Positions 11,926 to 30,387 of a stretch of DNA of 64,000 nt are shown here, piece after piece. Position 1 is the stretch's first letter; every line of letters starts with the position of its first letter. The translations under genes and the position numbers were made by a program. The stretch spans positions 14,561 through 78,560 of the IMG/VR virus record IMGVR_UViG_3300020205_002848; one strand, written 5' to 3'. The notes beneath the pieces were generated by a model. It was not told the DNA's origin, searched no databases, and saw only the letters and a list, made by a program, of their open reading frames with translations. The DNA comes from a virus.

Positions 11926-12393
11926 ATGATAACTAAAATATCCATATTAGGTAAAGAAAATTCTAAAAAAACTAGGTTAACTAAAGATTTAGCATGTTAT
12001 TATAATACTAATTTTGTATTGGATTATAAATATCTTATTTTTGGGAGTTTTGAAAAAACTCCAGAATGTGAGGATTACCTTAAAATTTCCAATGATAGAC
12101 TATCATTGGAAAATTGGCTTTTAAAGAGTTCCAATAAGATACTATTTTCAGATACTGATGACTTTAGTTTATATTTAGATGTTTCAAAAAAATTCCCAAA
12201 AAATAAAAAAGTAAAAGAGGAAATTCTATCAAGAGTTTTAAATAAAAAGTTTGATTATTATTTTCTAATAAATCCTACCGATGAAATAATTTCAGAAGCT
12301 AATAAATTAAAACTAAATATCGAAATATTTAAGGGAGAGTATGATGAAATTAAAAATAAATGTATATCATTTATAAATAAGTCTATAAATTAA
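11926..12393 (+). CDS. NadR-type P-loop kinase-like protein with degenerate Walker A
   Basis: KISILGKENSKKTRLTKDLA...ILFSDTD. Confidence 0.6.
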   Translation: MITKISILGKENSKKTRLTKDLACYYNTNFVLDYKYLIFGSFEKTPECEDYLKISNDRLSLENWLLKSSNKILFSDTDDFSLYLDVSKKFPKNKKVKEEILSRVLNKKFDYYFLINPTDEIISEANKLKLNIEIFKGEYDEIKNKCISFINKSIN

Positions 12394-13563: not shown

Positions 13564-15029
13564 ATGACAAGAGAAGAAAAAATATTCAAGATCGAGTCTT
13601 TAAAAAAACAAGCGAGCGAGCTAAAGAAGGAAGCGGATTACTACAACGCACTTCAGCTCGCTCTTGTTTAGCCCCCGGTATTTATTATCGGGGGCAAAAG
13701 AGACTAAAATTAGTTCTAAATGGAAGTTACGGCGCATTCGCTACATCCTACTTTATATTATATAATAACCACGTAGCTGGTACAATTACTGCACAAGGCA
13801 GGGACCTTACACAAACAATGGACAGGGTCAATGAAGACTATTGGTATAACCAGTGGCACAACGACCATGAACTTCATTTTAAATTAGGTATTAAAGATGT
13901 AAGTGAAATATCTAAAAGTGAACCAGTTTCTATATATGCTGATACTGATTCATTATTCGTTTCTTTCAAACCAGCAATTGACCATTGTAATTGGAAAGAT
14001 TTAATATTCAATAAAGAATATTTAGATTCGATTGATGAGAAGTTTATCATATTAACAAATGATGAGACAAAAACAAATAATCCTAATTGTTTAGGAATCG
14101 CATCTAACTTAGATGATTTATCTGAATTAATAAAAAATGATTATAAAGTTTTATTATTCGATGGTAACTTTATTAAAGACAGAGGGTTGAATAAGATGAT
14201 AAAAAATGGAGTATTCACATCTAGTATTGGGTGGAATTGGCCAAGTGAGCAAGACTTTATACAGGGTGTTGATCATTTTAGATTTGGTGGATACTTTAAA
14301 AAATGTTTAGAAGATTACGCATCATCTTTTGGTGTTGAAAATAAAGAAGATTTTGAATTAGAAAGAATATCTGAATCGATTATCAATCTTGCTAAAAAGA
14401 AATATATTTGTCACATAACATATGAAGATGGCATCCCATTTGATAGACTGACTTATCTTTATCCAAAAGGTGTTGAGCTTGTTAGATCGTCTACTCCGGC
14501 ATTTGCTAGAGATAAGATTGTTGGTATTGTTAAGTATCTATTTACACACCCAGATACCTTTAATATAAAAGATTTATTAAAATTAGTTAAGGGTTTAAGG
14601 AAAGAGTTTGAGTTAGCTGATATTGATGATATCGCAATGCAGTCTTCTTGTTCTAATTATGATATTAAGGTTCTAAATGATAAATCATTACCTCTTCAAT
14701 TTGTATCAGGTGCTCACTTTGCGGTTAAATCAGCAGCTCACTATAACTATCTTTTATCAAAGAGTAAAGACCATCAACAAAAGTATGAGTTTATTAAATC
14801 AGGGACTAAGATTAAATACTTTGTATGTAAAGATAAATCGGTAACTGATATGTTTGCTTATATTAGAGGTTCTTATCCACATGAATTTGCACCACCTATT
14901 GATTATGATACACAGTTTTCCAAATCTATTTTATCACCGGTGAATTCTATTATAGAGCCATTGGGAATGCCAGAGATTACTAAAAGGTTATCAGTTGTAA
15001 TGGATATATTTAGCGGTTTTTCGAAATAG
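13564..15029 (+). CDS. family B DNA polymerase, C-terminal subunit (gp43B-like); interrupted by a 41-nt insert (join 13564-13665 and 13707-15029, about 474 aa)
   Basis: MTREE...YYNALQLAL then GTT TAG; other frame resumes CTA AAA = (L)KLVLNGSYGAF...TITAQGR; YADTDS, KKKY, KGVELVRSSTP. Confidence 0.9.
13606..13706 (+). other. candidate programmed translational bypass element (5' stem-loop, take-off CTT, TAG, gap hairpin, landing CTA)
   Basis: GAGCGAGCT(13614-22)/AGCTCGCTC(13655-63) plus AAACAA/TTGTTT stem; GCCCCCGGTA/TATCGGGGGC hairpin 13671-13695. Confidence 0.75.
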
Positions 15030-15953
15030 TTAGAAGATTATACCTTCAGGGTGTTTATTACTAAACACCTTTACTTTTCTAACAAAACTTGGATCAGTAT
15101 CATCTTCAATTACATCTAGAACTGGAGAGCATATTAAATCTATTTTTGAATATTTATTATTAGTTAATGACTTTTTAGCTTCACCTTCTCTACTTTTAAC
15201 CTGAACTGTATAAACTACTGAACCCCTTTTCATAATTAAGTCAATTCCATATATCATATCAATCCAATCGCCATCACCACCTTGGTATAATATTTCAAAA
15301 CCTTTTGATTTAAAATATTCAGCAACAAAGTTTTCAGCTTCTTCACCGATATCACTCATTTTTCTATTAAATGAAACATATTCTCTTACATCAAAATTAT
15401 CTCTTATTATCTCTTCAACATTATTTGTACTAAAAAATACCTTTAACCAAGATTTCAAATCAGCGACATTTAATTTTTTTATTTCTTCTATTTTTCCTAG
15501 AAGTTCTAAGACATCATATAATATATCAGCTTGATCTGAATAGTTGGTATTCAATTTATTAACAGGGTGGTATTCACCATTAGCATCTACTACTCTAACC
15601 AATTCTTTTAAATTAATTGACCAATAACCTGTTGGATATTTTTTTATATCAGGATATTTACCGGTTTCGAATAATATTTTAAGAGGTTCTTGATAGAATT
15701 TATTATAATTTTTCTTACTTGACATATCTAATAAAATATTATCAATAATACCTCTCATATTTAAATTATAAATAAGAAATTCTTTAAGATTACTTAATTT
15801 TGAAAAAAGAATAAGATTTTTTTCCTTTTTAGGGGTTTCGATAACTTCTTCTTTATCATCTTCTTTTTTGAAAAGTGGATCACCTTGATAAGCGTTTTCA
15901 AAACCAAATGATAACTGTCCTTCTTTTATAAATTCATTGTATTTTTTTATCAT
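15030..15953 (-). CDS. PD-(D/E)XK nuclease-like protein with capsid-targeting-like N-terminus
   Basis: GEEAENFV...DMIYGIDLIM...TVQVKS; MIKKYNEFIKE. Confidence 0.6.
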   Translation of the reverse strand: MIKKYNEFIKEGQLSFGFENAYQGDPLFKKEDDKEEVIETPKKEKNLILFSKLSNLKEFLIYNLNMRGIIDNILLDMSSKKNYNKFYQEPLKILFETGKYPDIKKYPTGYWSINLKELVRVVDANGEYHPVNKLNTNYSDQADILYDVLELLGKIEEIKKLNVADLKSWLKVFFSTNNVEEIIRDNFDVREYVSFNRKMSDIGEEAENFVAEYFKSKGFEILYQGGDGDWIDMIYGIDLIMKRGSVVYTVQVKSREGEAKKSLTNNKYSKIDLICSPVLDVIEDDTDPSFVRKVKVFSNKHPEGIIF

Positions 15954-15985
15954 AATGGTATATATTAAAAAAAGATATATAATTT

Positions 15986-16216
15986 ATGAAAAATGATGAA
16001 TTATATCCATTCTATTTAGTCTATCTAGATATTAGACTTAGTGGTCTAAAAATATCAAATGGTTCTTACTCTTTATTAAAAATGAGTAGAAGTTCTTTCG
16101 AAGACTTTAAATATAAATTTGAAAATGATGAACTTTTTTCAGAAAAGATTATAAAAATAAAGACTTCTGAAATAAGAGATAAAAAAATAGACGATTTATT
16201 TGATGATTTTAATTGA
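15986..16216 (+). CDS. hypothetical protein with RDxKI motif
   Basis: EIRDKKIDDLF. Confidence 0.65.
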   Translation: MKNDELYPFYLVYLDIRLSGLKISNGSYSLLKMSRSSFEDFKYKFENDELFSEKIIKIKTSEIRDKKIDDLFDDFN

Positions 16217-16595
16217 AGAGATAAAAGTTGATAATACCAATATTAGGTTTTATGATGGAATTGACTTCAATGAAATATTGAATCATGCAAAAGATGGATC
16301 AAATGGGTTTATTTTTTGTTACATAGACAGTTGGGAAAAAGAAGTTAAATCTTATGAAAGAGATAGTAAATTAGTATCTATTTTAAATAAATCAAAGTTT
16401 AATAAATTCAAAAGTGAATACATAGATAATAATTATGTCTCGATTTACCAATTGTCAAATACAAAGGTGGAAACTTTACACCAAATAATCAAAGAAAAGG
16501 TGATAAATAACCAATTTCATGACCATCCTTGGGTTCCAATTAGTGGATTTTCATCAGGTGGGTGGAAAATATCAAATAGTGAAGATCCTAATTAA
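16200..16595 (+). CDS. hypothetical protein
   Basis: internal ERDSKLVSIL motif. Confidence 0.65.
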   Translation: MMILIEEIKVDNTNIRFYDGIDFNEILNHAKDGSNGFIFCYIDSWEKEVKSYERDSKLVSILNKSKFNKFKSEYIDNNYVSIYQLSNTKVETLHQIIKEKVINNQFHDHPWVPISGFSSGGWKISNSEDPN

Positions 16596-16616
16596 ATATA
16601 TACTTTAGTGAGAATT

Positions 16617-17111
16617 ATGAAACATTTAATGAGATATGAAGGTTATACATCTATGGAAAGAGTAGATGACATTTTAGATAAAATATCTAAATATGGTATA
16701 AAATCGCTTACTCAGTTAGAAAAAGAGTTCTTAGATTCTCACAAATCAGGGCACGAAGAAGAATTACATGTAAAATTAGCAGAGTATGAGAATGAAACTA
16801 CTTTTGTTGATGATAATGGTAACTTTAAATTTGAATTTCTCAATTGTGAAGAATATGGTGGTGAAAAACATTATACAGGGGTTTTATATGTACCTGATCT
16901 AATACTAAAAAGTGGTAAAAGAATTCAAGGTATTTTAGGGGGTAAAATAATCGTTTATGAAAATGGTGGAATTTCTCCGGAATTTTATTCAGTTTCAAAA
17001 GACCCAAACACACATGAAAACTATGAAATTTTCGATTTCTGTGAGGGATTAGAGTATGAATTGGATTCATTTTTAGATTATGTGGTTGATGAACTAGAGG
17101 ATAAAAACTAA
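16617..17111 (+). CDS. DUF6576-like domain protein
   Basis: ERVDDILDKISKYGIKSLTQLEKEFL. Confidence 0.6.
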   Translation: MKHLMRYEGYTSMERVDDILDKISKYGIKSLTQLEKEFLDSHKSGHEEELHVKLAEYENETTFVDDNGNFKFEFLNCEEYGGEKHYTGVLYVPDLILKSGKRIQGILGGKIIVYENGGISPEFYSVSKDPNTHENYEIFDFCEGLEYELDSFLDYVVDELEDKN

Positions 17112-17152
17112 AGTTTGATATTTAATATATAATAAAAAAAAATAAGATTATT

Positions 17153-17701
17153 ATGATTAAAAAATATAATCAATTTGTGGATAGTAAAGCAAACGAAGAA
17201 TTTACGTTTAGTGATACTGCACAAACTCCGGTTAGACCTGATGTTAGACCTGGCGTTAAACCTGAAGAAGAAATAACACCATCAAAACCATCACCATTTA
17301 AAAGAAACAGACCATCTGTTGAGCCACAACCTAAAGCTAATTTAGAAATGGAAATGGAAGATGAAGAAGTTGAAGTTGATAAATACACACACGCTTTGAG
17401 AAAATTAGCAGAAGCTTTAGGTTCTGAATATAATGAAAGTGATAAATTTGTGATGGTTGATGGTAAGAAAGTAATTTTCCCACCGGAAACTGAAAAATAT
17501 CACGTAGAAGGTATTAAAAAACCATTCGCTACTTTAGAAGATGTTATTTCTCATTTTGAGACTCAAGATACTGAAGAAATAGAGAATAGAACTGAAGAGG
17601 CATCAGCTGAGATGGATTCTATTAAAGACGAATCATTTTTAGATTCAGGTGAGAACCAATTTGAATCGAAAAGTTATAAACTTAAAAGATTTAAAAAATG
17701 A
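17153..17701 (+). CDS. acidic/Pro-rich putative internal head protein
   Basis: MIKKYNQFV; late motif at 17123. Confidence 0.7.
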   Translation: MIKKYNQFVDSKANEEFTFSDTAQTPVRPDVRPGVKPEEEITPSKPSPFKRNRPSVEPQPKANLEMEMEDEEVEVDKYTHALRKLAEALGSEYNESDKFVMVDGKKVIFPPETEKYHVEGIKKPFATLEDVISHFETQDTEEIENRTEEASAEMDSIKDESFLDSGENQFESKSYKLKRFKK

Positions 17702-17811
17702 GATTAATTTTAATAATTGTAACTTTATTGATTATATCATCATGTAAAACTACAGAAGAACATTGTGACGCATACTCACAAAATGAAATAAAAAAAGACC
17801 ATCAAATTTGA
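17698..17811 (+). CDS. small lipoprotein (37 aa), not in ORF track
   Basis: MRLILIIVTLLIISSC lipobox then KTTEEHCDAY; ATGA overlap with upstream stop. Confidence 0.65.
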   Translation: MRLILIIVTLLIISSCKTTEEHCDAYSQNEIKKDHQI

Positions 17812-17823
17812 TGGTCTTTTTTT
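17791..17823. terminator. bidirectional intrinsic terminator
   Basis: AAAAAAGACCATCAAATTTGATGGTCTTTTTT between convergent genes. Confidence 0.8.
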
Positions 17824-17838
17824 ATTTTTAAATAATAA

Positions 17839-18147
17839 TTATTGATCCATTTCTTTTTCCTTTTGTATCTTACTTATAATATAACCAGATACTGCAAACT
17901 CAGCAGCTGACCATAAAAGGAATTCACCCATTGTAAGTGTTGGATATTTCTCCATTAAGAAGAATATCATACCCCATTGAGCGATTAAAAAAGCCATTCC
18001 TGACTCAATTCTCTTTTTTGAAAAGAATGAACTACTATTAGAATATATTTTTAATAATTCTGTAATACCCCATTTTATATTCCCCCATCCAAAAAACCAT
18101 TTTTTCTTTGTTGGTTTTGTATCCAACTCTTTGTTTTCCTTTACCAT
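17839..18147 (-). CDS. two-TM membrane protein (holin-like)
   Basis: SKKRIESG followed by two hydrophobic helices. Confidence 0.5.
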   Translation of the reverse strand: MVKENKELDTKPTKKKWFFGWGNIKWGITELLKIYSNSSSFFSKKRIESGMAFLIAQWGMIFFLMEKYPTLTMGEFLLWSAAEFAVSGYIISKIQKEKEMDQ

Positions 18148-18224
18148 AGTGATTAATTAATTTTTATAAATTATATATAAAATTAGGAAAAGAACTTTTG
18201 TCAATATATACAACGATATTATAT

Positions 18225-18698
18225 ATGAAATTGATAAAAACACTAAAATTTCTTTTAATTTCTGAGCATCAACACTTTTTATCAGTAGATGTTACGACTT
18301 ATAAAAGATGGAAAATACTAATAAAACTGGTTATAAATCTAAATAAGAACTACAAAACTTGTGAAATATATAGAAAGAAATTCAAATACTTAGAAGACTT
18401 TGTAGTTGTTGGACTTAGATATAACGGGAAAAATGTTAGAAGAAGAACATCTGGATTCGCTAAAGAATTTGTAGAACAACATAAAGACTCTAAATGTATT
18501 TACTGTGACATTTCTTTAACACCTGAAAATGCAACAGCTGACCACATAATTCCGATTTCATCTGGTGGAAATAATTCCCAGGTTAATTTGATTGTGTGTT
18601 GTAAAGATTGTAATGCTGAAAGAGGAAATTTAGAATTTAGTTCATACTTAGTTCAGAAAAATAAAAATCACAAAACATCAAGAAATTTATTTATTTGA
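18225..18698 (+). CDS. HNH endonuclease
   Basis: CIYC...TADHIIPISSGG...NLIVCCKDCNAERG. Confidence 0.9.
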   Translation: MKLIKTLKFLLISEHQHFLSVDVTTYKRWKILIKLVINLNKNYKTCEIYRKKFKYLEDFVVVGLRYNGKNVRRRTSGFAKEFVEQHKDSKCIYCDISLTPENATADHIIPISSGGNNSQVNLIVCCKDCNAERGNLEFSSYLVQKNKNHKTSRNLFI

Positions 18699-19271
18699 TA
18701 TTTTAACCTTTTTAAAAACTTTGAAATTATCTTCCCAAGGAATAAAAACTACACCGTCAGCCAAAACTTCAAGTTTTATTTTACCAATCTGACCTTCTTT
18801 CAATATGTTAAGTTTTTTAACAGGTATTATACATTTCCCATTTTCAACCTCACCTAAGAACATAATATTCCAATCATCTGATTCTATTACTAATCTAGTA
18901 GTTACTTTCGATGTATCAGTCCCATCTATGTGAATATCACAAGAAAAGTTTTCATTAACATCTTGATATAATTTATAATAATTGGTGTTTGTGTTTTCGA
19001 ATTGTAAATTACTTTCAAGTGAATTGTCTTCATCATCTTCATCATCTTCATCAAAATCAAAATTTTGTTTATTTTCAACATCTTGATCATTTAGATTTTC
19101 TTTCTCATTTTCTTGATCAACTTCTACAGTTTCTTCAAAATCATCTTGTTCAAATGAATAATCTTTAACATCATCCTCTTCATCAAATGAATCATCATTT
19201 AAAATTGGCGCACTTTCATTTATAAATTTATTGGATATAAAATCTTTGAAACTTATCACATCTTTAATCAT
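18687..19271 (-). CDS. acidic hypothetical protein with C-terminal beta domain
   Basis: 194-aa ORF, late motif 19276-19284. Confidence 0.7.
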   Translation of the reverse strand: MIKDVISFKDFISNKFINESAPILNDDSFDEEDDVKDYSFEQDDFEETVEVDQENEKENLNDQDVENKQNFDFDEDDEDDEDNSLESNLQFENTNTNYYKLYQDVNENFSCDIHIDGTDTSKVTTRLVIESDDWNIMFLGEVENGKCIIPVKKLNILKEGQIGKIKLEVLADGVVFIPWEDNFKVFKKVKISNK

Positions 19272-19281
19272 GATTTATATA

Positions 19282-19677
19282 TTATTTTTTAATATCAATT
19301 TTTATATTTACTCCAGAATTTATAAATCTTTCAAAATCATTAGTTGACACTTTTATATCCTCTTTTTTCTCTAAAACCTTTTCATAATCAATATCATTTA
19401 CTCTACAATATAATTTTATTATTTTTTCGGTTTTCTCATCTCCTATATTCTCTCTTAACTTATTCCATGGATTTCCATCTATATAATCTTTAAAAGGATA
19501 TCCTCCTGATCCACCTCTTTTTACTTCTAAAAGAATGAATATTTCATCCCAGGTCATATCTATATTTTCCCATTTGAGATTTAGTTCATCCCAATCTAAA
19601 TATTTCTTACCATTTGATATTTCTTCATCAGACCAATCAACATTGGTTCCTAGAAGAGATGAGTATTTTAACGACAT
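19282..19677 (-). CDS. hypothetical protein
   Basis: 131-aa ORF, Trp-spaced N-terminus. Confidence 0.65.
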   Translation of the reverse strand: MSLKYSSLLGTNVDWSDEEISNGKKYLDWDELNLKWENIDMTWDEIFILLEVKRGGSGGYPFKDYIDGNPWNKLRENIGDEKTEKIIKLYCRVNDIDYEKVLEKKEDIKVSTNDFERFINSGVNIKIDIKK

Positions 19678-19744
19678 AAATATTATAAGCTTTTTAGTAT
19701 ATATAAAAAATGTAAGATTAAACTATTAATATATATATCAAATT

Positions 19745-22700
19745 ATGAATTATAATTTAACAGGAGTCACGGCCTCTCAATCATATGGTAGATTGGTACA
19801 AGTAGAATTAGGAACACCCAATTCTTTTTATGATGGGTTTGGTAACCCAATATCAATTGGGGGAGTCGGTCCAACTGGATCACCTGGACCTGCTGGTCCA
19901 ACATTTTTAGTTGGTAACGCAGGGGATAATAGAGTAATGACTTCAGTGGGTACAAATTCAGCATATGCTGAATCTAATTTAACATTTGATGGATCGACCT
20001 TGAATGTAGTTGGTGATATAACAAGTACTTCTGTTAATACAGATTCACTTGGTGTTGATTACTTAGACGCATATCATGGGACATTTTCAACAGTTGATAC
20101 ATCTTACTTATATACTGATAGTTTAGTAATCAATAGTATTTCTTCTACTTCGAGTTTGACTAGTTATTTAGTAATTGATGGGAGTGGAAATGTTTATTCA
20201 CAAGTAGGTATTATAGGTGGTTCTGGATCGAATGGATCAAGTGGGACTTCTGGATCAAACGGACTTGATGGATCAAGTGGAACATCTGGATCAAACGGAT
20301 CTGATGGACTTGATGGATCAAGTGGAACATCTGGGTCTAACGGAATTGATGGACTTGATGGATCAAGTGGAACTAGTGGATATAACGGAATTGATGGATC
20401 AAGTGGAACTAGTGGATCTAACGGAATTGATGGATCGAGTGGGACATCTGGATCAAACGGATCTGATGGACTTGATGGATCGAGTGGAACATCTGGATCA
20501 AATGGAATTGATGGATCAAGTGGAACAAGTGGATCTAACGGAATTGATGGATCATCTGGGACATCTGGGTCAAACGGAATTGATGGATCAAGTGGAACAA
20601 GTGGGTCAAACGGAATTGATGGATCAAGTGGAACAAGTGGGTCAAACGGAATCGATGGAACTTCAGGGACAAGTGGATCAAACGGAATTGATGGATCATC
20701 GGGAACAAGTGGTGTTAATGGATCATCCGGAACAAGTGGATCAAGCGGAACTGGGTTTAACTCAATTATAAATCCAACTGATTATAGAATATTGACATCT
20801 ACTGGGTCTTCTACGAATTCAGCATTGGCTAATACAGGATTAACTTATGATGGTAATACATTCTCTGTTCATGGGGGTACTATTGACTCAGTTAAATATG
20901 TTGATTTTGGTGAGTATGCAATATCAGCGACTAAAACAGGTAGAACTTTCTTTGATGAAACTGACAAAGCTCTATCTTATTTCCCTGATACTGGTCAAGA
21001 TGTCTTGGTTAAAACCGGTCAGCAATTATATACAAGAGTTTATAATAACTCTGGAATTTCAATACCAAAGGGGTCAGCTGTTAAGATATTATCAGCTTCT
21101 GGTAGTTTACCTTGTGCTACTTTAGCATTGGCTACACATACTGTTAATAATCAAGTTTTAGGACTAGCCGCTTCAGATATTCCAAATTTAGGAGCAGGTT
21201 TAATTTTAAATAAAGGTATATTAAGAGGAATTGCTATAAATACATTTAGTGTAAATGATATTGTATACTTATCAGATACTATACCAGGTGGGTATACAAA
21301 AACCCTATCTGTTTTACCAGGTGCGATAACCCCTAGAACAAATCAAATAGGGTATATTTTAGCTACTGGTTCAACAACTGGTGAAATATATGTTGATGTG
21401 GTTAATGAACCAGTTAGTTTAAGTTTAACTAATATTGAGAGAAATATATTAGAGGGTAATGTTATTTCAACTGGGGCTTACGCTTTCGGTGGTATAACAC
21501 AAACATCAGGGACTACGTTTACTATTGGTACTGTTAGTGCTTGGATAGTTCAAAATACTTATGAGTATGCAACATTACCCGATGTTATTAATGTTCAATA
21601 TCCTATGACTACTGGGTTGACAAGTTCTTATATAAATACAGCGGATTCAACTTATTTACTATTAACTCGCACATCTTCTATTACACAACAAGGGACTTTT
21701 CCAACACCTCAACAAAGAAGAGAGAATGTATATTTAGGAAAAATAACACACCCCAATAGATCATCATTCCAGAATGTTAATAATTCAGCGGATTATGATG
21801 TTTCCCCAATGTCGTCGCTAAGAGACTTATGGGCACCAATTAAACTTATCAATGATGGTATTGTTGTTTCTTCAAATGCTGCTAATTTAACTATTAAAAC
21901 ATCATATGGTAAATTATGGGGTAATGGTATTAACTTCCAATTAAATGAATTAGATCCAAATAGTTTGGTTATATCAGCAACCACACCATCAACATTCCAA
22001 TATAGAACACAAACCGGTGGCACTTTCAGTAATACTACTAATATAGACCCTGGATTCTATGACTTAGCTGGAGTGAGAACTGCTATTCCTGGTTCATCAT
22101 CAAGAGCTAGTAATCAAAGAATCTATCTATTCCCAACTGGAATAATTAGAATTCAGTATGGCCAACAATGGTATGCTAATTTAACAGATGCTGTTACTGG
22201 TTTGGAAGGTGAGACATTTATAGAATATCCTAATAATAAAGAATCTGGTATACTAATAGGAATTTTAAGTGTTGTGAAGGGAGCGACCAATTTACAAACT
22301 ATCGCAGATGCTAAATTTCAATTTGTTTCTAAGTTTGGTGAATTATTAGGGGGGACCGGTGGTTTATCAACAACGACATTACAACAAGCTTATGATAACT
22401 CTACTAGTCCTGAAATATTAACAGATTCTACATTGGGTGCAGTTACATTCAAAAGAGGAAGTACATCCGATAGTGATAATGTTATTGAGGTTTTAAGTGG
22501 ATCTAATGGTGTTACTTTTAGTGTAACTGGTCATGGTAAAACAACTACAAATACTTTATCAATTAAAGGAATCGGTTCAACATCATCAGCAACTAAATAT
22601 ATGGTTGTTGATGATAGTGGTGATACTTACTACCAAACTACAAATATTGGATCAATTGGGGCTACTGGGGCAACTGGATTAGGGGGAGCTTTGGGTAATT

Positions 22701-23443
22701 ATGGAGCATTTTATGATACAGCAACACAATTAAACCCAACGGCTAGTACTGCAATGCCAATGTATATTAACTCTACTTTTGAAAGTAATGGAGTTTCATT
22801 AGCAAACGGTTCGAAAATGTTATTTAGTAACCCAGGAACTTATAATATTCAATTCTCAACTGTTTTTAATAAGTCTAATTCATCTTCTGGATTGGTTGAT
22901 ATATGGTTTTCAAAAAATGGACAATATATAACTCAATCGAATACATCATTTAATATCGCTGGACAAGCAAATACAATAGCATCTTGGAATTTTATAAACA
23001 CAGTAAATGCAAATGATTATATAGAATTATATTGGAGTTCACCTGATACAACTATATCTATAGTTCCTACCGGGACACAATCAAACCCAACAAGACCAGC
23101 TGTACCTTCTGTTATATTAACTGCTCAACAAGTTATGTACACACAAACAGGACCAAGTTACTATTCTACAGCAACTGCTAGTTCAGTTACTTATAGTGTT
23201 GTTTTAGACCTAGAGCCAACTCAATATATTGGGGTTACATATTCTACAGCTTCTACTATACATATACCTAATTCAACACAAGATGGGAAAGTAGTAATAG
23301 TAAAAGATGAGTCTGGGTTAGCTTCATTGAATAATATTACAATAGAGGCTTCTAAAATAGATTCGGGTACACAATCTTTAATTTCTTCAAATCATGGACA
23401 TGTTAATTTAATGTGGAGAGGGAGTACTTGGTGGATAATTTAA
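19745..23443 (+). CDS. tail fibre-like protein with Gly-X-Y (GSSGTS) repeats
   Basis: 1232 aa, T/S/G-rich, collagen-like repeats, late motif at 19727. Confidence 0.75.
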   Translation: MNYNLTGVTASQSYGRLVQVELGTPNSFYDGFGNPISIGGVGPTGSPGPAGPTFLVGNAGDNRVMTSVGTNSAYAESNLTFDGSTLNVVGDITSTSVNTDSLGVDYLDAYHGTFSTVDTSYLYTDSLVINSISSTSSLTSYLVIDGSGNVYSQVGIIGGSGSNGSSGTSGSNGLDGSSGTSGSNGSDGLDGSSGTSGSNGIDGLDGSSGTSGYNGIDGSSGTSGSNGIDGSSGTSGSNGSDGLDGSSGTSGSNGIDGSSGTSGSNGIDGSSGTSGSNGIDGSSGTSGSNGIDGSSGTSGSNGIDGTSGTSGSNGIDGSSGTSGVNGSSGTSGSSGTGFNSIINPTDYRILTSTGSSTNSALANTGLTYDGNTFSVHGGTIDSVKYVDFGEYAISATKTGRTFFDETDKALSYFPDTGQDVLVKTGQQLYTRVYNNSGISIPKGSAVKILSASGSLPCATLALATHTVNNQVLGLAASDIPNLGAGLILNKGILRGIAINTFSVNDIVYLSDTIPGGYTKTLSVLPGAITPRTNQIGYILATGSTTGEIYVDVVNEPVSLSLTNIERNILEGNVISTGAYAFGGITQTSGTTFTIGTVSAWIVQNTYEYATLPDVINVQYPMTTGLTSSYINTADSTYLLLTRTSSITQQGTFPTPQQRRENVYLGKITHPNRSSFQNVNNSADYDVSPMSSLRDLWAPIKLINDGIVVSSNAANLTIKTSYGKLWGNGINFQLNELDPNSLVISATTPSTFQYRTQTGGTFSNTTNIDPGFYDLAGVRTAIPGSSSRASNQRIYLFPTGIIRIQYGQQWYANLTDAVTGLEGETFIEYPNNKESGILIGILSVVKGATNLQTIADAKFQFVSKFGELLGGTGGLSTTTLQQAYDNSTSPEILTDSTLGAVTFKRGSTSDSDNVIEVLSGSNGVTFSVTGHGKTTTNTLSIKGIGSTSSATKYMVVDDSGDTYYQTTNIGSIGATGATGLGGALGNYGAFYDTATQLNPTASTAMPMYINSTFESNGVSLANGSKMLFSNPGTYNIQFSTVFNKSNSSSGLVDIWFSKNGQYITQSNTSFNIAGQANTIASWNFINTVNANDYIELYWSSPDTTISIVPTGTQSNPTRPAVPSVILTAQQVMYTQTGPSYYSTATASSVTYSVVLDLEPTQYIGVTYSTASTIHIPNSTQDGKVVIVKDESGLASLNNITIEASKIDSGTQSLISSNHGHVNLMWRGSTWWII
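20218..20754 (+). repeat. coding tandem repeat, 36-nt unit (GSSGTSGSNGID)
   Basis: more than 10 imperfect copies, some with an extra GLD/GSD triplet. Confidence 0.9.
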
Positions 23444-23498
23444 ATAGATTTGATTGTGGTTTTAAAAATATACTTTTTACTACCACAATCAAGTAAAT

Positions 23499-24695
23499 TT
23501 ATAATTTGTTAAAATTATCAAATTTCCTATTATATTCATTATTCTCATCTATATTCTTTTTCTTTCTAAATTTAGGAATCCATTTTATATCCAAAATGTC
23601 AGAACTGAAGAATTCTTCCAATACTAACTTCTTATAAGGATCTTCAACTAATTGAGCTAATTTATTTATATCTTTAACTTTACTTATTCTATGAAGAAGA
23701 CTATATGGGTCTTTTGAATTCTTTTTATCAACAATATCTTCAAATAATTTTCTCCATAAGAAAATGGGATAACCTTCTTTAAGTTTTTCTTCAGATTTTT
23801 TATAACCAGCTTCATCATTATCAAAAAAGTATTGAATATCCAACTCATTATTCTCAAGGAAAGTATAATCAGTATTTACACCCACCAGTCCAATAGAATT
23901 TGGATAAAATAAAGAATCTAAATAACCCTCAAATACAGTAAGTCTATCCATTAAATCAACATTTAAAATATTGAAATAATATGAAAGTTTATTGTAAACA
24001 ACAATCTGTGATATATCCATATCGACTATATTTTCCCTACCTATATTAGTCCATTCTAAAAGATTTTCATAATTGTAAATCTTAAACATACGCCTCTTAC
24101 CCTCTTTAAGATTACGGACTTGCATACCCAAAACTTTAGTATCTCTACGATTTAACATAATTATAATCCACTCTGATTCATCTTCATTCTTCCAATACTT
24201 TGCTTGGTAAATATTTTTATGAAATTCAGGTGGGATTCCCCTACCAATTAAATACTTATAAACACCACCATTTACTACAATAGGTTTAAAGTCTGTTATA
24301 GGGGTTAATTCTTGACTAAATACTCTTTCCAACTCTGATAACTCTATCAAGTCATCAAATTTAGCATCAACAAAGTCACCAGCATAATCAGAATAGGTCA
24401 TAACACTATTTAAGTGTTCTATCATTTCAAGCTTCTTGTCAGGGTCTAATTGTTCATTGAAATCTTTGCAGAGTTTATCTAAAGTTGTTCTTCTATCACA
24501 ATTAAAACAGATGAAAAATAATTTATTAAAGTATAAGTTACCCCGCTTTGCGTATTTATTTTTACCGGAATCACCACAACAAGGACAGCAAAAGTTTAGC
24601 CTATCATTATAGACTACTATTTTTCTACGAGTAGGGTCTGAAAATTCTTTATTTAAAATGTTCTGAATTAACCCTGTTACATAAACCTTATCCAT
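23499..24695 (-). CDS. DNA primase (T4 gp61-like)
   Basis: NFCCPCCGDS...KRG...CFNC Zn domain; TOPRIM VFEGYLDSLF, FFDNDEAG, KDIN. Confidence 0.9.
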   Translation of the reverse strand: MDKVYVTGLIQNILNKEFSDPTRRKIVVYNDRLNFCCPCCGDSGKNKYAKRGNLYFNKLFFICFNCDRRTTLDKLCKDFNEQLDPDKKLEMIEHLNSVMTYSDYAGDFVDAKFDDLIELSELERVFSQELTPITDFKPIVVNGGVYKYLIGRGIPPEFHKNIYQAKYWKNEDESEWIIIMLNRRDTKVLGMQVRNLKEGKRRMFKIYNYENLLEWTNIGRENIVDMDISQIVVYNKLSYYFNILNVDLMDRLTVFEGYLDSLFYPNSIGLVGVNTDYTFLENNELDIQYFFDNDEAGYKKSEEKLKEGYPIFLWRKLFEDIVDKKNSKDPYSLLHRISKVKDINKLAQLVEDPYKKLVLEEFFSSDILDIKWIPKFRKKKNIDENNEYNRKFDNFNKL

Positions 24696-24814
24696 TTTTA
24701 TAATTTTTTAATCATATGTATTATTATTCATATAATAAATATCACACTCCCAATTTTATAGATTGGTAAAAGAAGTAAGTTTAAATCAAAAAAATTAATT
24801 AGTATATTTATATT

Positions 24815-25072
24815 ATGAGAACATTAAAAGAGTTATATGATTTGGGGTTAGATGTCAGAGATTCTGATATCCCAAAAATCTGGAAAGAAAGTTTTGAAAA
24901 ATTCATTTTTGGATCTACCTGCCAAGTTGAAACCAATGAAGATGGATCAATTAGAGAATTTATATACTATGGGTCTGATTTCCGTCATTGGTATTACCAA
25001 AATAAAGAAGTTATCGAGAGGGATATTAAAATAGATGAATTATTAGATAATAAAAAAAGTCCTCTTATTTAG
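24815..25072 (+). CDS. hypothetical protein with RDxKI motif
   Basis: IERDIKIDELL. Confidence 0.65.
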   Translation: MRTLKELYDLGLDVRDSDIPKIWKESFEKFIFGSTCQVETNEDGSIREFIYYGSDFRHWYYQNKEVIERDIKIDELLDNKKSPLI

Positions 25073-25084
25073 AGGACTTTTTTT
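25052..25084. terminator. bidirectional terminator
   Basis: AAAAAAAGTCCTC...GAGGACTTTTTT between convergent genes. Confidence 0.7.
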
Positions 25085-26240
25085 GTTTATTTGTTTCTTT
25101 TATTTCTTTTCTCATTTCTTTCGAATTTCTAGCCAGATAATCTACTTGTCTTTTAAATTGATTATAAAAGTCATCCTGTCTATTTTCAGGACCAGATGGG
25201 TTTAATCTACCAGTCATATTACCAAATTGAGTACAAGTAAGTACTGAACTTTCAAGACCAGTTGATTGATTTGAAGTTTCAACTATTTTGTTGAAATTTT
25301 TGAAACTTTTTACAATTGACTCTTTTTTATAAATTGTTGTTTGGGTTTCATCTCCACCTGTATCAAATAAATAAAACTCTTTTACATTTGAGTAAGTCTC
25401 ATTATGAAGTTCTTTCAAAACCTCATCCATGTGTCCGACATTCCCTGGATCATCATCAGAAAATCCAACTTTAGCAACCACTTTCCAATTTTCACCGCTC
25501 TTATTAAAATCCTCTTCTAATTCTTTTGCATAATTATCACATTTTTTAACAAATTCTAAGAAAGCATCTTCTTTTGATTTCTCTGGGTTGTCTGGTTTTC
25601 CTCCTCTTGATGGAGCAGATACTCCTATAAATTGACATTGATCTAAATAATCATTTATTAAATCATCATCTGATTTAATAGGTTGATTGAATAAGTGAGA
25701 ATACATTTTTAAATGATCCATCATACTCGCTCTTTCTGTTGGACTAAATTTACTTATTATAAACTCAACTCCTTCTCTCATAGGTCCTGAATTATTATTA
25801 GGCCCAGATTCGTGTCCTCTAGCGGTGATTATAGAAAAAAGAGAACCAGTTGTAAGACATTTTTTGAATTTATCATAAGATTTTGCGAACATTCTATTGT
25901 TTATCGCTTTTTCAACATCTTTAACAAAGATTTTTGGTTCAACCTCATCTCTAAAATATCTAAATGAATCTTTTGCGTATCCAGTTATAACTTGACCATT
26001 ATATTCAAAATTTTCAACACCTATAATTGAACGGTATTCCGCGAAATCTTGAGTAGACATTCCTACTTCTTCACCTTTATCATTTGAAAGAAATATTTCA
26101 GTTGGCATATGTAGTATATTATCATCCCAGTCAAATGCATAATAAAGCAATTCATATACTTTATAATCTGAACCAGAAGCATCTTGAAATTGACCTTCTC
26201 TATACTCTTCTTTAAGGTATTGATTAAACTTTTTAATCAT
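25065..26240 (-). CDS. HAD-superfamily-like protein with capsid-targeting-like N-terminus
   Basis: YYAFDWDDNI, IITARGH, GFSDDD; MIKKFNQYLKEE. Confidence 0.7.
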   Translation of the reverse strand: MIKKFNQYLKEEYREGQFQDASGSDYKVYELLYYAFDWDDNILHMPTEIFLSNDKGEEVGMSTQDFAEYRSIIGVENFEYNGQVITGYAKDSFRYFRDEVEPKIFVKDVEKAINNRMFAKSYDKFKKCLTTGSLFSIITARGHESGPNNNSGPMREGVEFIISKFSPTERASMMDHLKMYSHLFNQPIKSDDDLINDYLDQCQFIGVSAPSRGGKPDNPEKSKEDAFLEFVKKCDNYAKELEEDFNKSGENWKVVAKVGFSDDDPGNVGHMDEVLKELHNETYSNVKEFYLFDTGGDETQTTIYKKESIVKSFKNFNKIVETSNQSTGLESSVLTCTQFGNMTGRLNPSGPENRQDDFYNQFKRQVDYLARNSKEMRKEIKETNKQKKSSK

Positions 26241-26246
26241 TTTAGG

Positions 26247-26573
26247 TTATTTTTTTTTGTTTAAAAATGATTGGAAAGATTCTAAAGCGGAACCTTCTAC
26301 TCTTTTCTCATCTTCTTCTTCTTGAGACTCATCTTCATCTTCATCTTCATCATCTTCTTGAGACTCTTCTTGACCAAAATCTTCTTCTTCTTGACCAAAT
26401 TGACCAAATCCTTGAACTTCATCATTATCAGACTCTTCACCTTCTTCACCTTCTTCGATTTCGATTGTGAATTCTTCGATAACTTCTTCGTCTTTAGTAG
26501 CATTAACAGAGATAACACCTTCTAATTCTTCGATACTTATTACATATCCGTTTATTTCAACACTAGTTTTCAT
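26247..26573 (-). CDS. highly acidic small protein
   Basis: E/D-rich; C-terminal LESFQSFLNKKK; late motif at 26592. Confidence 0.7.
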   Translation of the reverse strand: MKTSVEINGYVISIEELEGVISVNATKDEEVIEEFTIEIEEGEEGEESDNDEVQGFGQFGQEEEDFGQEESQEDDEDEDEDESQEEEDEKRVEGSALESFQSFLNKKK

Positions 26574-26665
26574 ATTTTCTATTTTTTTTATTATATATTA
26601 AAATCCAATATCGCTTTTATATAAAACTTTATCTATTTTTTTTATAAAAAACAAAAACTATTAAC

Positions 26666-27328
26666 ATGAATAAGGACTTAAATAAATTTCTAAATAGTCA
26701 ATCAATATCAAGTACATTTCAAAATGATTATTTTAAAAAAATGCAAATACGAAATTCAACAGCTAATCTCCTAGAAAGTAATGGGATGCCAGTTGATATT
26801 TTCTCAAAACTTTTAGATGATAGAATTATCTTTCTTACTGATGAGGTTGATTCCGATATCTGTAATATAATCAAAGCTCAATTGCTTTATTTAGATATGG
26901 AAAGCTCTGATGATATATCAATTTATTTAGACACTCCAGGTGGATCTGTTTATTCAGGATTGGGACTTTTAGATGTTATGGATTATATAAAATGTGATAT
27001 ATCAACTGTCAATACAGGACTTGCTGCATCGATGGGCGCTGTCATTCTATGTTCTGGTACAAAGGGGAAAAGAAAAGCTCTTAAAAGAAGTAGGACAATG
27101 ATCCATCAACCGATGAGTTACGGTGGTTATGTTCAACAAGCCTCTGATATGGAAATTGAAGCAAAAGAAATGAACTCACTTAAAAAGGAATTATATGAGA
27201 TAATTTCAGACAGAACTGGTCAAAATTATGATAGAGTTTATAAAGATGGTGATAGAGATTATTGGATGTCTTCACAAGATGCTAAGAAGTATGGAATGAT
27301 TGATGAAATCGTGGTAAAAAGAAAGTAA
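26666..27328 (+). CDS. clpP: ATP-dependent Clp protease proteolytic subunit
   Basis: DIFSKLLDDRIIFL, TPGGSV, GLAASMG, MIHQP, DRDYWMS. Confidence 0.95.
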   Translation: MNKDLNKFLNSQSISSTFQNDYFKKMQIRNSTANLLESNGMPVDIFSKLLDDRIIFLTDEVDSDICNIIKAQLLYLDMESSDDISIYLDTPGGSVYSGLGLLDVMDYIKCDISTVNTGLAASMGAVILCSGTKGKRKALKRSRTMIHQPMSYGGYVQQASDMEIEAKEMNSLKKELYEIISDRTGQNYDRVYKDGDRDYWMSSQDAKKYGMIDEIVVKRK

Positions 27329-27329
27329 A

Positions 27330-28079
27330 ATGATAAATAAAATATTTAACGAGAGTAATTTAGAAACTATGTTAAAAATTACAGATAAGTCAATTTCTGG
27401 AATTATAACATCACCACCTTATAACATCACCTCTAAAAGAAAGGATGGTTACTATAATAATGGATATTCTGATATGGATAATCTAACCCCAGATGAGTAT
27501 TTAGAAGTAAGAACAAATGAGTTTAAAGAATTTTCTAGAATAATGGAAGATAAAGGTGTTATTTGTTATAACATATCATATCATAATGAGAATCCGATTC
27601 TACCAACTTTATTGATTGCTAAAATTCATAATGATACAGACCTAACAGTTGCTGATATTATAACTTGGAAGAAACCAGTTGCAATTCCATTTGCGACAAG
27701 TCCAACTAAGCTATCAAGGATATGTGAGTTGATTTATGTTATTGTTAAAAAGGATCATTTACATGATTTCATGACAAATAAAGAAATTAGTTCGGTTAGT
27801 AAAAAGACGGGTCAGACTTTTTATAAAAATTACCAAAATATAATTGAAGCCAAAAACAATGATGGTGTTAATTGTAAATTGAAAGCTTCTTTTTCAGAAG
27901 ACTTAGTCAATAAACTACTTAATATTTATTTCCCTATTGGTTCGACTATTTACGACCCGTTTATGGGCATATCGACAACTGCTAGAGCTTGTGAAAAGTC
28001 AGGTAGAAACTTTATAGGATCTGAATTAGACAAAGAACACTTTGAAATCGGATTAGAAACACTTAAAGAAAAAGTTTAA
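27330..28079 (+). CDS. DNA methyltransferase (N4-C/N6-A, beta class)
   Basis: ITSPPY, YDPFMGISTT, FIGSEL. Confidence 0.9.
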   Translation: MINKIFNESNLETMLKITDKSISGIITSPPYNITSKRKDGYYNNGYSDMDNLTPDEYLEVRTNEFKEFSRIMEDKGVICYNISYHNENPILPTLLIAKIHNDTDLTVADIITWKKPVAIPFATSPTKLSRICELIYVIVKKDHLHDFMTNKEISSVSKKTGQTFYKNYQNIIEAKNNDGVNCKLKASFSEDLVNKLLNIYFPIGSTIYDPFMGISTTARACEKSGRNFIGSELDKEHFEIGLETLKEKV

Positions 28080-28083
28080 GCAT

Positions 28084-28116
28084 AAAAAAACCACTCAAAT
28101 AATTTGAGTGGTTTTA
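28084..28116. terminator. bidirectional terminator
   Basis: AAAACCACTCAAAT/ATTTGAGTGGTTTT. Confidence 0.8.
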
Positions 28117-28132
28117 ATTTTTTCAGTAGAAA

Positions 28133-28462
28133 TTACTCACCTTGTTTTTTAGGTCTTGGTTTTCTACGAGTTTTAGCTTTAGGTTTTTTCTCACCTTCAA
28201 CCTCTTCAACTTTAGGTTGTTCAACTTTAGTAGATTTAACATTAGCCTTTATTTCTTTAGCTGTTACCTTTTCTTCTTCAACTTTAGGTTGAGCAGCTTT
28301 AGGTTGAGCAGCTTTAGGCTTTCTTTGAGTTTTAGGTTGTTCAGCTTTAGGAGCTTCATTCTTAACCTCATTCTTAACAACAGGAGATTTTTCAATACTC
28401 ACTGTTTCCACTTTAGTTTGATCCTTACCAAAACTAAAAAATCTTTTGATAGATTCCCACAT
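28133..28462 (-). CDS. Lys/Pro-rich low-complexity protein
   Basis: PKAAQ repeats, basic tail, amphipathic N-terminus. Confidence 0.65.
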   Translation of the reverse strand: MWESIKRFFSFGKDQTKVETVSIEKSPVVKNEVKNEAPKAEQPKTQRKPKAAQPKAAQPKVEEEKVTAKEIKANVKSTKVEQPKVEEVEGEKKPKAKTRRKPRPKKQGE

Positions 28463-28563
28463 AATTAGATTTATTTTTTTTGTATATATAGAAAATATTC
28501 ATCTCCCTATATAAAAAACCACAAAAAATTCGATGAAAAGATGGATTTTTTATATATAAATTT

Positions 28564-30036
28564 ATGAAATTTAGATATGACAAAGAAACCGAAGAGATAG
28601 TAGTATCAGAAGCTTCAAGAATTGAATATCACCAATTAGAAATTTGGTTGACTCGTCATGTCAAGGGATATAAGTATATGCCGGCATTTAAAATGGGAGT
28701 TTGGAATGGACAACAAACATATTTTAGAAACGGTAGATTCAATCTAGGACTTTGGAAAGAAGCTATGAGGGGTTGTAAAGAAATAGAAATGCCTTTTATA
28801 CTTGAAAACAAAAATGATTTTCCACTTAATAGAGATGTTACTTTAGAAGGGGTTAAAGAATTTTGTAAAGATTTTTTTAAAGAACATAAAGTTAGAACAA
28901 AAGATGGTCAATGGATACCATTTGCTCCATATGATCATCAAATAGAATCTGCTTATAAAATTCTTAAAAATAGATATTGCATGGCAGAGGTAGCAACATC
29001 AGGTGGTAAATCTCTAATAATATCTATTGTCATGTTTTACACATTGAAAAATATAGACGAAACTGCTAAATTTTTAATTATTGTACCATCAATAACTTTA
29101 GTAACACAATTTTATGATAATATAATAGAATATAATTATGGTATTAATAACTTATTGGAGATGAGAGAAAAAGAATCTGACCACATTTTAACCGGTACTC
29201 ACTTACCATGTGATGTTAGAGTTGAAGAGGTTATGTCAGAGAGACCTAGAAAATTCTCAGGTACACAAAATGCTAATGTTTATGTTGGTACTTATCAATC
29301 ATTAGAGAAATGGCCAAAAGAGTTTTTTCAACAATTTCACACAGTTGTAACAGATGAGGCACATGGGGCTAAAGCAAAAACAATTACTACTATTCTAGAG
29401 AATACTTTCAAACATGCTTACTCGAGATTTGGAGTTTCTGGTACATTTCCAGAAGATGATACTTGTGAAATATTAACAATACAATCAGTGTTGGGTCCAA
29501 AAATAACAGAGGTCTCTGCTAATGAATTAAAAGAAAAGGGAATTATAACACCTATGGAAATAAAAGCTGTTATAATGAATCACAATGACTTAGAATTTGA
29601 TGAGAGAATGACTATTATTAAAAGAAGTGGTAATGGTAAAGATGCTTTCGAATTGGAAAAACAATACATACATGCTTCTGATAGAAGATTGGACTTTATT
29701 AAAAAAATAGTTGATAAATGTGATTCAAATACTTTACTACTTTTTCACACAATTGAATATGGTCAAAGAATATTTAATAAACTAAAAGAGGATCTACCTG
29801 ATAAAGAATTTTACTATATTGATGGTGAGGTTTCTGGTAAAAAAAGAGAAGTAATTAAAAAGGAAATGGAAATAACCAAAGAGAAAGTCGAATATACGAT
29901 TTTGAATTTTGGTGATTATGAGATTGAGTTTAAATCAGACTTTAAAATATTACTAAGTGATGGATTATTTAAAAAAGCATGTGATATATCACCAGATGAT
30001 GATATTGATGATGATTTTATAAATAAATATAAATAA
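28564..30036 (+). CDS. uvsW: UvsW-like SF2 helicase, N-terminal part (motifs I-IV) ending in an intein-like tail
   Basis: PYDHQ, ATSGGKS, VPSITLVTQ, TDEAH, GVSGT, YIDGEV. Confidence 0.9.
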   Translation: MKFRYDKETEEIVVSEASRIEYHQLEIWLTRHVKGYKYMPAFKMGVWNGQQTYFRNGRFNLGLWKEAMRGCKEIEMPFILENKNDFPLNRDVTLEGVKEFCKDFFKEHKVRTKDGQWIPFAPYDHQIESAYKILKNRYCMAEVATSGGKSLIISIVMFYTLKNIDETAKFLIIVPSITLVTQFYDNIIEYNYGINNLLEMREKESDHILTGTHLPCDVRVEEVMSERPRKFSGTQNANVYVGTYQSLEKWPKEFFQQFHTVVTDEAHGAKAKTITTILENTFKHAYSRFGVSGTFPEDDTCEILTIQSVLGPKITEVSANELKEKGIITPMEIKAVIMNHNDLEFDERMTIIKRSGNGKDAFELEKQYIHASDRRLDFIKKIVDKCDSNTLLLFHTIEYGQRIFNKLKEDLPDKEFYYIDGEVSGKKREVIKKEMEITKEKVEYTILNFGDYEIEFKSDFKILLSDGLFKKACDISPDDDIDDDFINKYK

Positions 30037-30044
30037 ATATAAAT

Positions 30045-30387
30045 ATGGCTAAAATAATAGACAAAAGAAAAATAATCAGAGAAGAAGGGGCGACTAAAGT
30101 TTTAGTCGCCTCTTACTGAGGACGGTACATTATCCACAGGAGTATCGATAAATGCTATTTTTAATGTAATATTCGCTGATTCTTTTAAATCGGAGCAAAT
30201 TATTATACAATCAATTGGTAGAGCACTTCGTTTACACTCTGATAAAAAGAAAGCAAATATCTTTGATTTGGTTGATATTTTTAATTCCAATAATATGAAT
30301 AATATATTATTTAGACACTTTAAAGAAAGAGAAAAATTTTACACAAAAAGACAATATCCTTACAAAATAATCAAAGTTAATCTTTGA
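30045..30387 (+). CDS. uvsW: UvsW C-terminal part (motifs V-VI); interrupted by a 7-nt insert (join 30045-30116 and 30124-30387, about 111 aa); missed by ORF track
   Basis: MAKIIDKRKIIREEGATKVLVASY TGA G GAC then GTLSTGVSI...QSIGRALR...IFDLVD. Confidence 0.85.
30085..30123 (+). other. candidate 7-nt translational bypass element
   Basis: 13-bp hairpin AAGGGGCGACTAA/TTAGTCGCCTCTT ending at take-off TAC, then TGA, landing GAC. Confidence 0.7.

Follow-up and report, generated by a model that had tools for sequence, protein, structure and literature searches.

Two gene 60/MobA-like cassettes with candidate ribosome-bypass gaps in the DNA polymerase and helicase genes of a huge lake phage

Analysis of a 64,000-nucleotide (nt) stretch of viral DNA (IMG/VR record IMGVR_UViG_3300020205_002848, positions 14,561 to 78,560; hereafter, the window) revealed gaps in the coding sequences of two replication genes, a family B DNA polymerase (PolB; the locus is called pol below) and a UvsW-like helicase. 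In each case, the two parts of the open reading frame (ORF) correspond to one contiguous homolog, and uninterrupted relatives read QLALKLVLNGSYG at the pol site and VLVASYGTLSTG at the helicase site. The reading that we favor, with a probability of roughly 0.7, is that these are two independent gene 60/MobA-like homing-endonuclease cassettes that placed gaps in the most conserved motifs of their host genes and that, judging from sequence, are decoded by translational bypassing. The pol cassette comprises a recoded gene 5' end, which forms a 12-bp stem, and a 41-nt gap with a stop codon and a C5...G5 hairpin. The helicase element split its gene, added tails to both halves, and ends in a 7-nt gap.

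The contig to which the window belongs is 78.5 kilobases (kb) long and comes from a huge lake phage. Two huge phages, LR745206 (634 kb) and LR756502 (642 kb), showed 74–80% nucleotide identity to the contig, and DNA of the window phage was found in lake metagenomes of 17 studies. For comparison, 32 pol loci and 70 helicase loci of relatives (numbered with the prefix L) were taken from viral contigs. The two RNA runs, X19 and X20, provided contigs only, with little coverage.

At the pol site, the gap lies within PolB motif B and is not present in uninterrupted relatives (Table 1). In two relatives, L001 and L002, the C-fragment is likewise a separate gene with the same start, and it runs uninterrupted into KLVLNGSYG, reading CTT GCT CTT AAA TTA at the junction; the insert in the window is therefore exactly 41 nt long. 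Its removal joins QLAL to KLVLNGSYG, which is the sequence of the uninterrupted relatives. The sense codon GTT comes first in the gap and the stop codon TAG stands at +4 after the take-off codon, while the downstream frame has no ATG, GTG, or TTG ahead of 13818. The C5...G5 hairpin is present as a single copy in the 78.5-kb contig, at this gap. A 47-nt hop from GTT to GTT was rejected, as it would remove the motif B lysine and is impossible in TTT-type alleles; an alternative genetic code was also rejected, since it cannot mend a frame change.

Comparison among relatives revealed 18 distinct pol gap alleles. Their insertions fall at five positions in a nine-codon stretch, following A, L, V, S, or Y of QLALKLVLNGSY. 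Gap lengths ranged from 36 to 48 nt and took every value modulo 3, with near-identical cassettes having gaps of 41 nt (window) and 40 nt (L026). All of the gap alleles contained a C4-5...G4-5 hairpin starting 6–7 nt past the take-off codon (the codon that restores the protein), and the inner stem positions covaried, with four to six pair types each, including G.U. The stretch between the hairpin and the resume point was A-rich and of variable length (8–17 nt), which is what tRNA scanning would be expected to give. Take-off and landing codons were synonymous at four of the sites, with seven pair types (CTT/CTA, CTG/CTA, GCT/GCA, GCT/GCT, GTT/GTA, GTT/GTT, and TCT/TCA). The stop codon directly adjoins the take-off codon in L028, L030, L038, and L114, and its position immediately after CTT in L114 supports CTT as the take-off codon.

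Fold analysis showed that the 72 nt up to the pol take-off codon are considerably more stable in the 18 gap alleles (-21.1 kcal/mol) than in nine uninterrupted alleles (-8.6 kcal/mol; p = 3e-4). Across the 12 columns of the stem, 94% of the cells were paired in 10 gap alleles versus 44% in uninterrupted alleles. In L028 and L038, where the gap lies three codons further on, a different stem made from other codons ends at the shifted take-off site. RNAalifold recovered both pol hairpins (compensatory pairs, 8/22).

Other features of the pol region were also observed. The C-fragment genes of L029 and L038 (at the window equivalent of 13950) and of L033, L035, L036, and L037 (14000-14280) carry further insertions of 1.6–2 kb, which could be introns, inteins, or more endonuclease elements. 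Elsewhere in the window, adjacent tRNA-Ser(UGA) and tRNA-Ala(UGC) genes lie at 56005-56171; their anticodons would read the TCT/TCA and GCT/GCA take-off/landing pairs of the relatives' pol alleles, which may be coincidence.

At the helicase site, relatives have one uninterrupted ORF reading ...KKEMENTGDNVKVLIASYGTLSTG. The window instead shows, in order, a C-terminal extension, a stop codon (30034-30036), an ATG (30045), MAKIIDKRKIIREEGATKVLVASY, TGAGGAC, and then GTLSTG in the frame of the N-fragment, with the stop codon TGA at +1, directly after the take-off TAC. Removal of the 7 nt joins VLVASY to GTLSTG, as in uninterrupted relatives. Seven distinct gap alleles of 4–17 nt were found, all between Tyr and Gly of ASY-GT, with the gap sequences TGAGGAC, TGAGTAC (after TAT and after TAC), TGAC, TAGTAA, and one 17-nt gap; take-off/landing pairs in relatives were TAC/TAC and TAT/TAC. 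Because the TAGTAA gap of L065 presents two in-frame stops and stops block the other frames in the 17-nt gap of L110, a hop would be the only reading that fits all seven alleles. No conserved structure was found in the helicase gaps, and those of 4–7 nt have no internal structure.

The helicase 5' stem showed the same association with the gap, at -20.0 +/- 2.0 kcal/mol in the seven gap alleles versus -7.2 +/- 3.0 kcal/mol in 39 gapless alleles, with no overlap (p = 1.6e-5). It was lost in the split but gapless L090 (-8.5 kcal/mol) and in the re-fused L053 (-4.5 kcal/mol). Within the stem, 97% of the cells were paired, and there were two compensatory pairs, a number matched by 12 of 500 shuffles.

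The C-terminal extension (29877-30033, containing ...DFKILLSDGLFKKACDISPDDDIDDDF...) was conserved in all cassette-bearing relatives and in the re-fused L053. By eye it has the look of an intein N-fragment; a Pfam search gave no match to it, with no Hint or intein domain. The helicase of L110 is further split (2884-5615 of that locus) by a true split intein, both halves giving Intein_splicing and Hint matches, and a TnsA-like nuclease gene lies between the halves, an arrangement known as a 'fractured gene'.

Table 1. Features at the two interrupted genes, in window positions (z, fold stability compared with shuffled sequence)
Feature	Position	Strand	Details
Putative homing endonuclease, free-standing, 367 amino acids (aa)	12383..13486	-	Divergent from pol C-fragment; Pfam DUF7487 3e-17, PHROG homing endonuclease families 1e-7
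PolB C-fragment gene, first 34 codons	13564..13665	+	Own ATG; last codon is take-off CTT 13663-65
pol 5' stem-loop	13606..13669	+	Family-conserved 12-bp stem, 13615-26 with 13651-62; fold z = -6.5
pol coding gap, 41 nt	13666..13706	+	GTT, TAG 13669-71, C5...G5 hairpin 13671-13695, A-rich spacer, landing CTA 13704-06
PolB C-fragment remainder (motif B Kx3NGSYG onward)	13707..15029	+	Other frame, starts with AAA 13707; Pfam DNA_pol_B 5e-16
UvsW-like helicase N-fragment plus element-encoded C-terminal extension (from 29871)	28564..30036	+	Pfam DEAD, ResIII, UvsW_N
Helicase mobile element without endonuclease, 251 nt	29871..30121	+	C-terminal extension, stop, new ATG, N-terminal extension, recoded KVLVASY, gap nt 1-5
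Helicase 5' stem-loop, 12 bp	30086..30113	+	3' arm ends directly before TAC 30114-16; z about -5
Helicase take-off, gap, and resume codon	30114..30126	+	Take-off TAC 30114-16; 7-nt gap TGAGGAC 30117-23 (stop TGA, landing GAC); resume GGT 30124-26
Helicase C-terminal 87 codons (motifs V, VI)	30124..30387	+	PHROG DNA helicase 4e-25

Both gaps are associated with homing endonucleases. The free-standing ORF upstream of the pol C-fragment has an HNH-like motif near its C-terminus, recognized by eye only, and its homologs occupy the same upstream position in 16 loci that bear a gap, whereas all 12 uninterrupted loci and four gap-bearing loci lack them. In the helicases of L061 and L066, a 317–319-aa HNH protein (PHROG 8e-18) that is 26–31% identical to T4-type Mob endonucleases lies between the gene halves (at 5033-5986 of the L061 locus), and the window element has lost this Mob-like HNH gene. 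No relationship exists between the pol-linked and the helicase-linked endonuclease.

A small hairpin (13524-13539, AAGTCCCATTAGAGAC) separates the divergent endonuclease and pol genes of the window; in gap-bearing relatives it appears as GTCC...GGAC or GTTC...GAAC, in what looks like covariation, and it may belong to the mobile element or be a regulatory site. On the other side of the endonuclease, ORFs of 112 aa and 155 aa (11586-12393), the latter with a weak nicotinamide-nucleotide adenylyltransferase match, separate it from a conserved upstream gene and are missing at this place in L009 and L024.

Evidence of mobility was obtained for both elements. An independent contig from run X6 confirmed the helicase cassette, and in a DNA contig from another lake sample (run X2), with flanks 99.5% identical to the window, the 251 nt of the window are replaced by 38 nt of helicase sequence without interruption. 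This contig defines the element boundaries and shows that the 3' end falls within the 7-nt gap, leaving 2 nt up to the resume codon, a junction made ambiguous by an AC repeat. Contigs from three runs matched the window from 13703 onward and diverged upstream, indicating that the right end of the pol element lies at the landing codon. In one contig of relatives (L036/L072), the pol gap is present and the helicase is intact, showing that the cassettes vary independently among relatives. Between L012 and L013, the proportion of synonymous differences (pS) was 0.000 in the endonuclease gene and 0.163 in pol, which indicates recent transfer. Between the window and L026, pS was 0.74 in both the endonuclease and pol genes, the proportion of nonsynonymous differences (pN) in pol was 0.20, and 184 nt covering the N-terminal codons and the gap were 88.6% identical. 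The equal pS values and the pol pN point to old co-inheritance, with the gene kept under selection.

The same comparisons bear on the best surviving alternative, that endonuclease invasion has left both genes as scars, dead or dying, and that the phage uses other enzymes or makes do with the fragments. The existence of near-identical phages without the helicase element shows that the element is dispensable, and homing cassettes can sit in genes whose conservation predates the insertion. However, the flanking reading frames were intact in every gap allele, over about 430 codons in the 18 pol alleles and 87 codons in the seven helicase alleles. Downstream of the gap, pol showed a nonsynonymous-to-synonymous rate ratio (dN/dS) of 0.03–0.2 among gap-bearing alleles, and the helicase C-terminal part had a pN of 0.10–0.23 (0.38–0.45 in pairs with the divergent L089), with pS saturated. 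The long co-inheritance of endonuclease and cassette in the window and L026, with pol under purifying selection, also speaks against decay, and neither gap-specific 5' stems nor matched codons would be expected to persist in a dead gene. No PolB N-terminal (exonuclease) part, second exonuclease-domain match, or spare PolB copy was found in the contig, which is a genome fragment only. Taken together, we consider the scar explanation unlikely.

Under the bypassing reading, the ribosome would reach the take-off codon (CUU or UAC) with the 3' arm of the 5' stem still inside it, and decoding would stall at the stop codon, to which the hairpin of the pol gap may add. The peptidyl-tRNA would release from the take-off codon, the 5' stem would refold behind the ribosome and push it forward, and the tRNA would re-pair at the landing codon (CUA or GAC), so that the normal protein would be completed. 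Earlier work proposed that the ribosome is driven forward as mRNA refolds on leaving it. The 3' arm lies right behind the P-site codon, which fits such a mechanism, and the mechanism may apply here. The gap would probably destroy the endonuclease's own target site and leave the protein undamaged. Of the roles suggested in the initial annotation, protection of conserved sites from nucleases fits this picture best, as the gaps co-occur with homing endonuclease genes.

Several points weigh against this interpretation. The data show the anatomy, the mobility, and the comparative pattern of the elements, but we infer both bypassing itself, from the DNA letters only, and the immunity role. The take-off and landing codons of the window helicase (TAC/GAC) match at only two of three positions, and those of the pol Tyr site are near-cognate only (TAT/TAA, TAT/AAC, TAT/AGC, and TAC/GAC). 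A sense codon (GTT, TTT, GGA, AGA, GCT, or GTC) stands between take-off codon and stop in 12 of the 18 pol alleles, including that of the window, and the L037 and L014 alleles have no nearby stop; this arrangement in the window (CTT GTT TAG) differs from gene 60, and the bypassing reading does not account for how the ribosome would avoid decoding the GUU. Covariation in the pol 5' stem alone was not significant (73/500 shuffles), and a strong 5' stem was missing in the pol Ser-site and Tyr-site alleles. Part of the purifying-selection signal may predate insertion, since cassettes home into intact genes.

A second alternative is that the gaps are cut from the mRNA by a phage or host endonuclease and ligase recognizing the hairpins, the mended message then being translated normally. 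RNA ligases are often encoded by T4-like and huge phages, and the constant 6–7 nt from the 5' junction to the C5 hairpin could act as a nuclease ruler. The 3' junction, however, keeps no fixed distance from the hairpin (8–17 nt), and the helicase includes gaps of only 4–7 nt without internal structure; these features disfavor the nuclease/ligase excision that the initial annotation had also entertained. No Rfam family or intron-like fold was matched at either junction, and the flanking CUCUU/AAGAG pairing is not conserved. In the RNA library X19, one exact 151-nt contig starts at 13549 and reaches into the pol gap as far as 13689, though it extends only 24 nt past the junction, too little to count as bridging it, and could reflect DNA carry-over. 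Excision thus seems improbable.

No better placed is the proposal, put forward as a possibility in the initial annotation, that the gaps act together as a regulatory switch for the timing or gating of replication enzymes, whatever the decoding. Both targets are indeed replication/repair enzymes, and bypass efficiency, which is only about 50% in T4, could set the enzyme level. The sequence features on which the proposal was built were confirmed in part: both junction strings occur once each (13658-13671 and 30106-30123), the 3' arm of a long upstream stem ends at the take-off codon at both sites, and a stop follows soon after. The alternative CTC/GAG pairing is possible in the window (CUCUU/AAGAG and CCUC/GAGG) but is not conserved in relatives: the downstream GAG was found in 2 of 17 pol gap alleles and was missing from the helicase alleles L065 and L066. 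Neither are the supposed T...GAC ends conserved, since landing codons include CTA, GCA, GTA, TCA, TAC, TAA, and AAC besides GAC. The similarity between the junctions had been taken as independent of the proteins; however, TCGC(C)TCTT consists of ordinary codons for L-A-L and V-A-S-Y and is present in uninterrupted alleles (e.g., L011), so it is largely protein-driven. What the two sites do share is a design, in which a 5' stem-loop abuts the take-off codon, a stop lies close by, and the landing codon is cognate or near-cognate, but not a single RNA motif.

Wider searches pointed in the same direction. A covariance model built for pol (R1) matched all pol alleles, whereas at E <= 10 it gave no match at 30045-30130 and none in six helicase cassette loci. 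LR745206 has homologs of 54 contig genes; of these 54, pol and the helicase alone were split across frames, the other genes with multiple matches being paralogs. Beyond the pol site, no C5...G5 hairpin was found in the contig or in 878 kb of related loci, and four near-complete relatives (436–508 kb) had 0–2 each, the extra one, in the 464-kb genome, being terminator-like and intergenic. The cassette endonucleases are unrelated, only loci linked to homing endonuclease genes are affected, and cassette presence varies among close relatives, independently for the two. The absence of the helicase element from a near-identical phage shows that it is an accessory mobile element and no obligatory checkpoint of timing or host state. 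A common mechanism therefore survives only in part: bypassing is the most likely decoding at both sites, but not as one switch. The lack of a common model, the two affected genes among 54, the pol-only hairpin, and the independent variation suggest two selfish cassettes of convergent design.

Simple programmed frameshifting (-1 in pol and +1 at TAC-TGA in the helicase, adding 14 or 2 residues) is very unlikely: although the downstream frame is open through both window gaps and known +1 sites likewise have an A-site stop after a structured region, all three values modulo 3 occur among the gap lengths, stops lie in frame or in all usable frames in L018-20, L028, L030, L065, and L110, no slippery heptamer was found, and a 14-residue insert would fall in the middle of motif B (Qx3Kx3N). 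A prfB-type +1 shift in the helicase was also considered and rejected, as it cannot rescue L065, whose gap reads TAG TAA in frame, or L110, whose 17-nt gap has a TAA ahead of the resume codon.

To our knowledge, T4 gene 60 with its homologs, all in a single topoisomerase gene, is essentially the one natural system of programmed bypassing that has been studied well. Beyond it, we know only of the byps of yeast mitochondria and of a candidate case in phage Hau3. The byps of Magnusiomyces capitatus mitochondria are reportedly GC-rich hairpin inserts of about 27–55 nt in an AT-rich genome; they are said to be hopped between matching codons at varying positions, to number dozens per genome, and to have no endonuclease partner. 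The pol gaps resemble them in having GC-rich hairpins at varying positions between matching codons, whereas the C5...G5 hairpin is limited to one locus per genome, unlike the dispersed byps.

The closest parallel to the favored cassette reading is T4 gene 60/MobA (Huang 1988; Bonocora 2011; Manning & Atkins), in which a homing endonuclease is likewise tied to a gap in a conserved motif of a replication enzyme. The order of the helicase element is that of MobA/gene 60: the C-terminal extension is followed by a Mob-like HNH gene (in relatives), then by the N-terminal extension and the recoded homologous region, and the gap closes the element at its 3' end. Further likenesses to gene 60 are the 5' stem-loop and, in part of the alleles, matched or wobble-matched take-off and landing codons and a stop at the gap start; as with MobA/gene 60, the endonuclease can be lost with the gap retained, and gapless or re-fused derivatives exist. 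Cassettes of this type have been reported only in the topoisomerase gene (Manning & Atkins, bioRxiv 10.1101/2022.08.31.505936), whereas the host genes here are PolB and a UvsW-like helicase of superfamily 2 (SF2), not the Topo II large subunit, in huge freshwater phages. We found no paper on bypassing in PolB or UvsW-like helicase genes, outside the topoisomerase in T4-like phages, and none tying huge or jumbo phages to bypassing.

Differences from gene 60 were also evident in the RNA. A take-off stem-loop holding the take-off codon, as in gene 60, was not found: the pol hairpin starts 6 nt after this codon in the window (6–7 nt among alleles) and does not contain it, and the stop usually lies one codon later. 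The helicase gaps, at 4–17 nt, have no gap hairpin. No sequence homology to the gene 60 cassette was detected. Unlike MobA, the pol endonuclease is from a different family; it is encoded on the opposite strand, upstream of a gene whose separation is ancient. Membership in the MobA family by homology was rejected, as the host genes differ and the helicase-cassette endonuclease has only 26–31% identity to Mob-type HNH proteins.

The 7-nt helicase gap also resembles the terminase gene of Streptomyces phage Hau3, in which 10-nt gaps with a proposed 5' stem-loop stimulator were described (PMC10732093); both are very short bypassed or putatively bypassed gaps in phage genes. The Hau3 case (PMC10732093) involves a rare UUA codon as host-state sensor, while here an A-site stop codon and an endonuclease-linked element are present. 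Another parallel is offered by fractured genes (Dassa 2009, PMC2677866), which combine split inteins with free-standing endonucleases: there, too, an endonuclease-bearing element splits a replication gene. In contrast to these (PMC2677866), the tails of the window helicase have no Hint or intein match, and the RNA or the ribosome, rather than protein splicing, would bridge the break.

Apart from these loci, the region 20250-20820, within a 1232-aa ORF (19745-23443), encodes repetitive Gly/Ser/Thr-rich sequence and gave many extra contigs, joints, and loose ends in all four runs.

These results add two further candidate bypass families in other genes, with 25 natural alleles between them. At evenly balanced odds, bypassing may be a modular device recruited at least twice, in PolB and in the UvsW-like helicase, by unrelated homing endonucleases of huge phages to immunize their own targets. 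The refolding stem-loop on the exit side would be the common driver, alone enough for hops of 4–7 nt and joined by the C5...G5 hairpin for jumps of 36–48 nt that can start with a sense codon in the A-site. Gene callers will mark these essential huge-phage genes as broken. The 25 alleles vary in gap length (4–48 nt), insertion codon, stop position, hairpin sequence, and landing codon, and thus form a natural mutational series for the take-off trigger, for mRNA folding behind the ribosome as a driver, and for landing-site choice.

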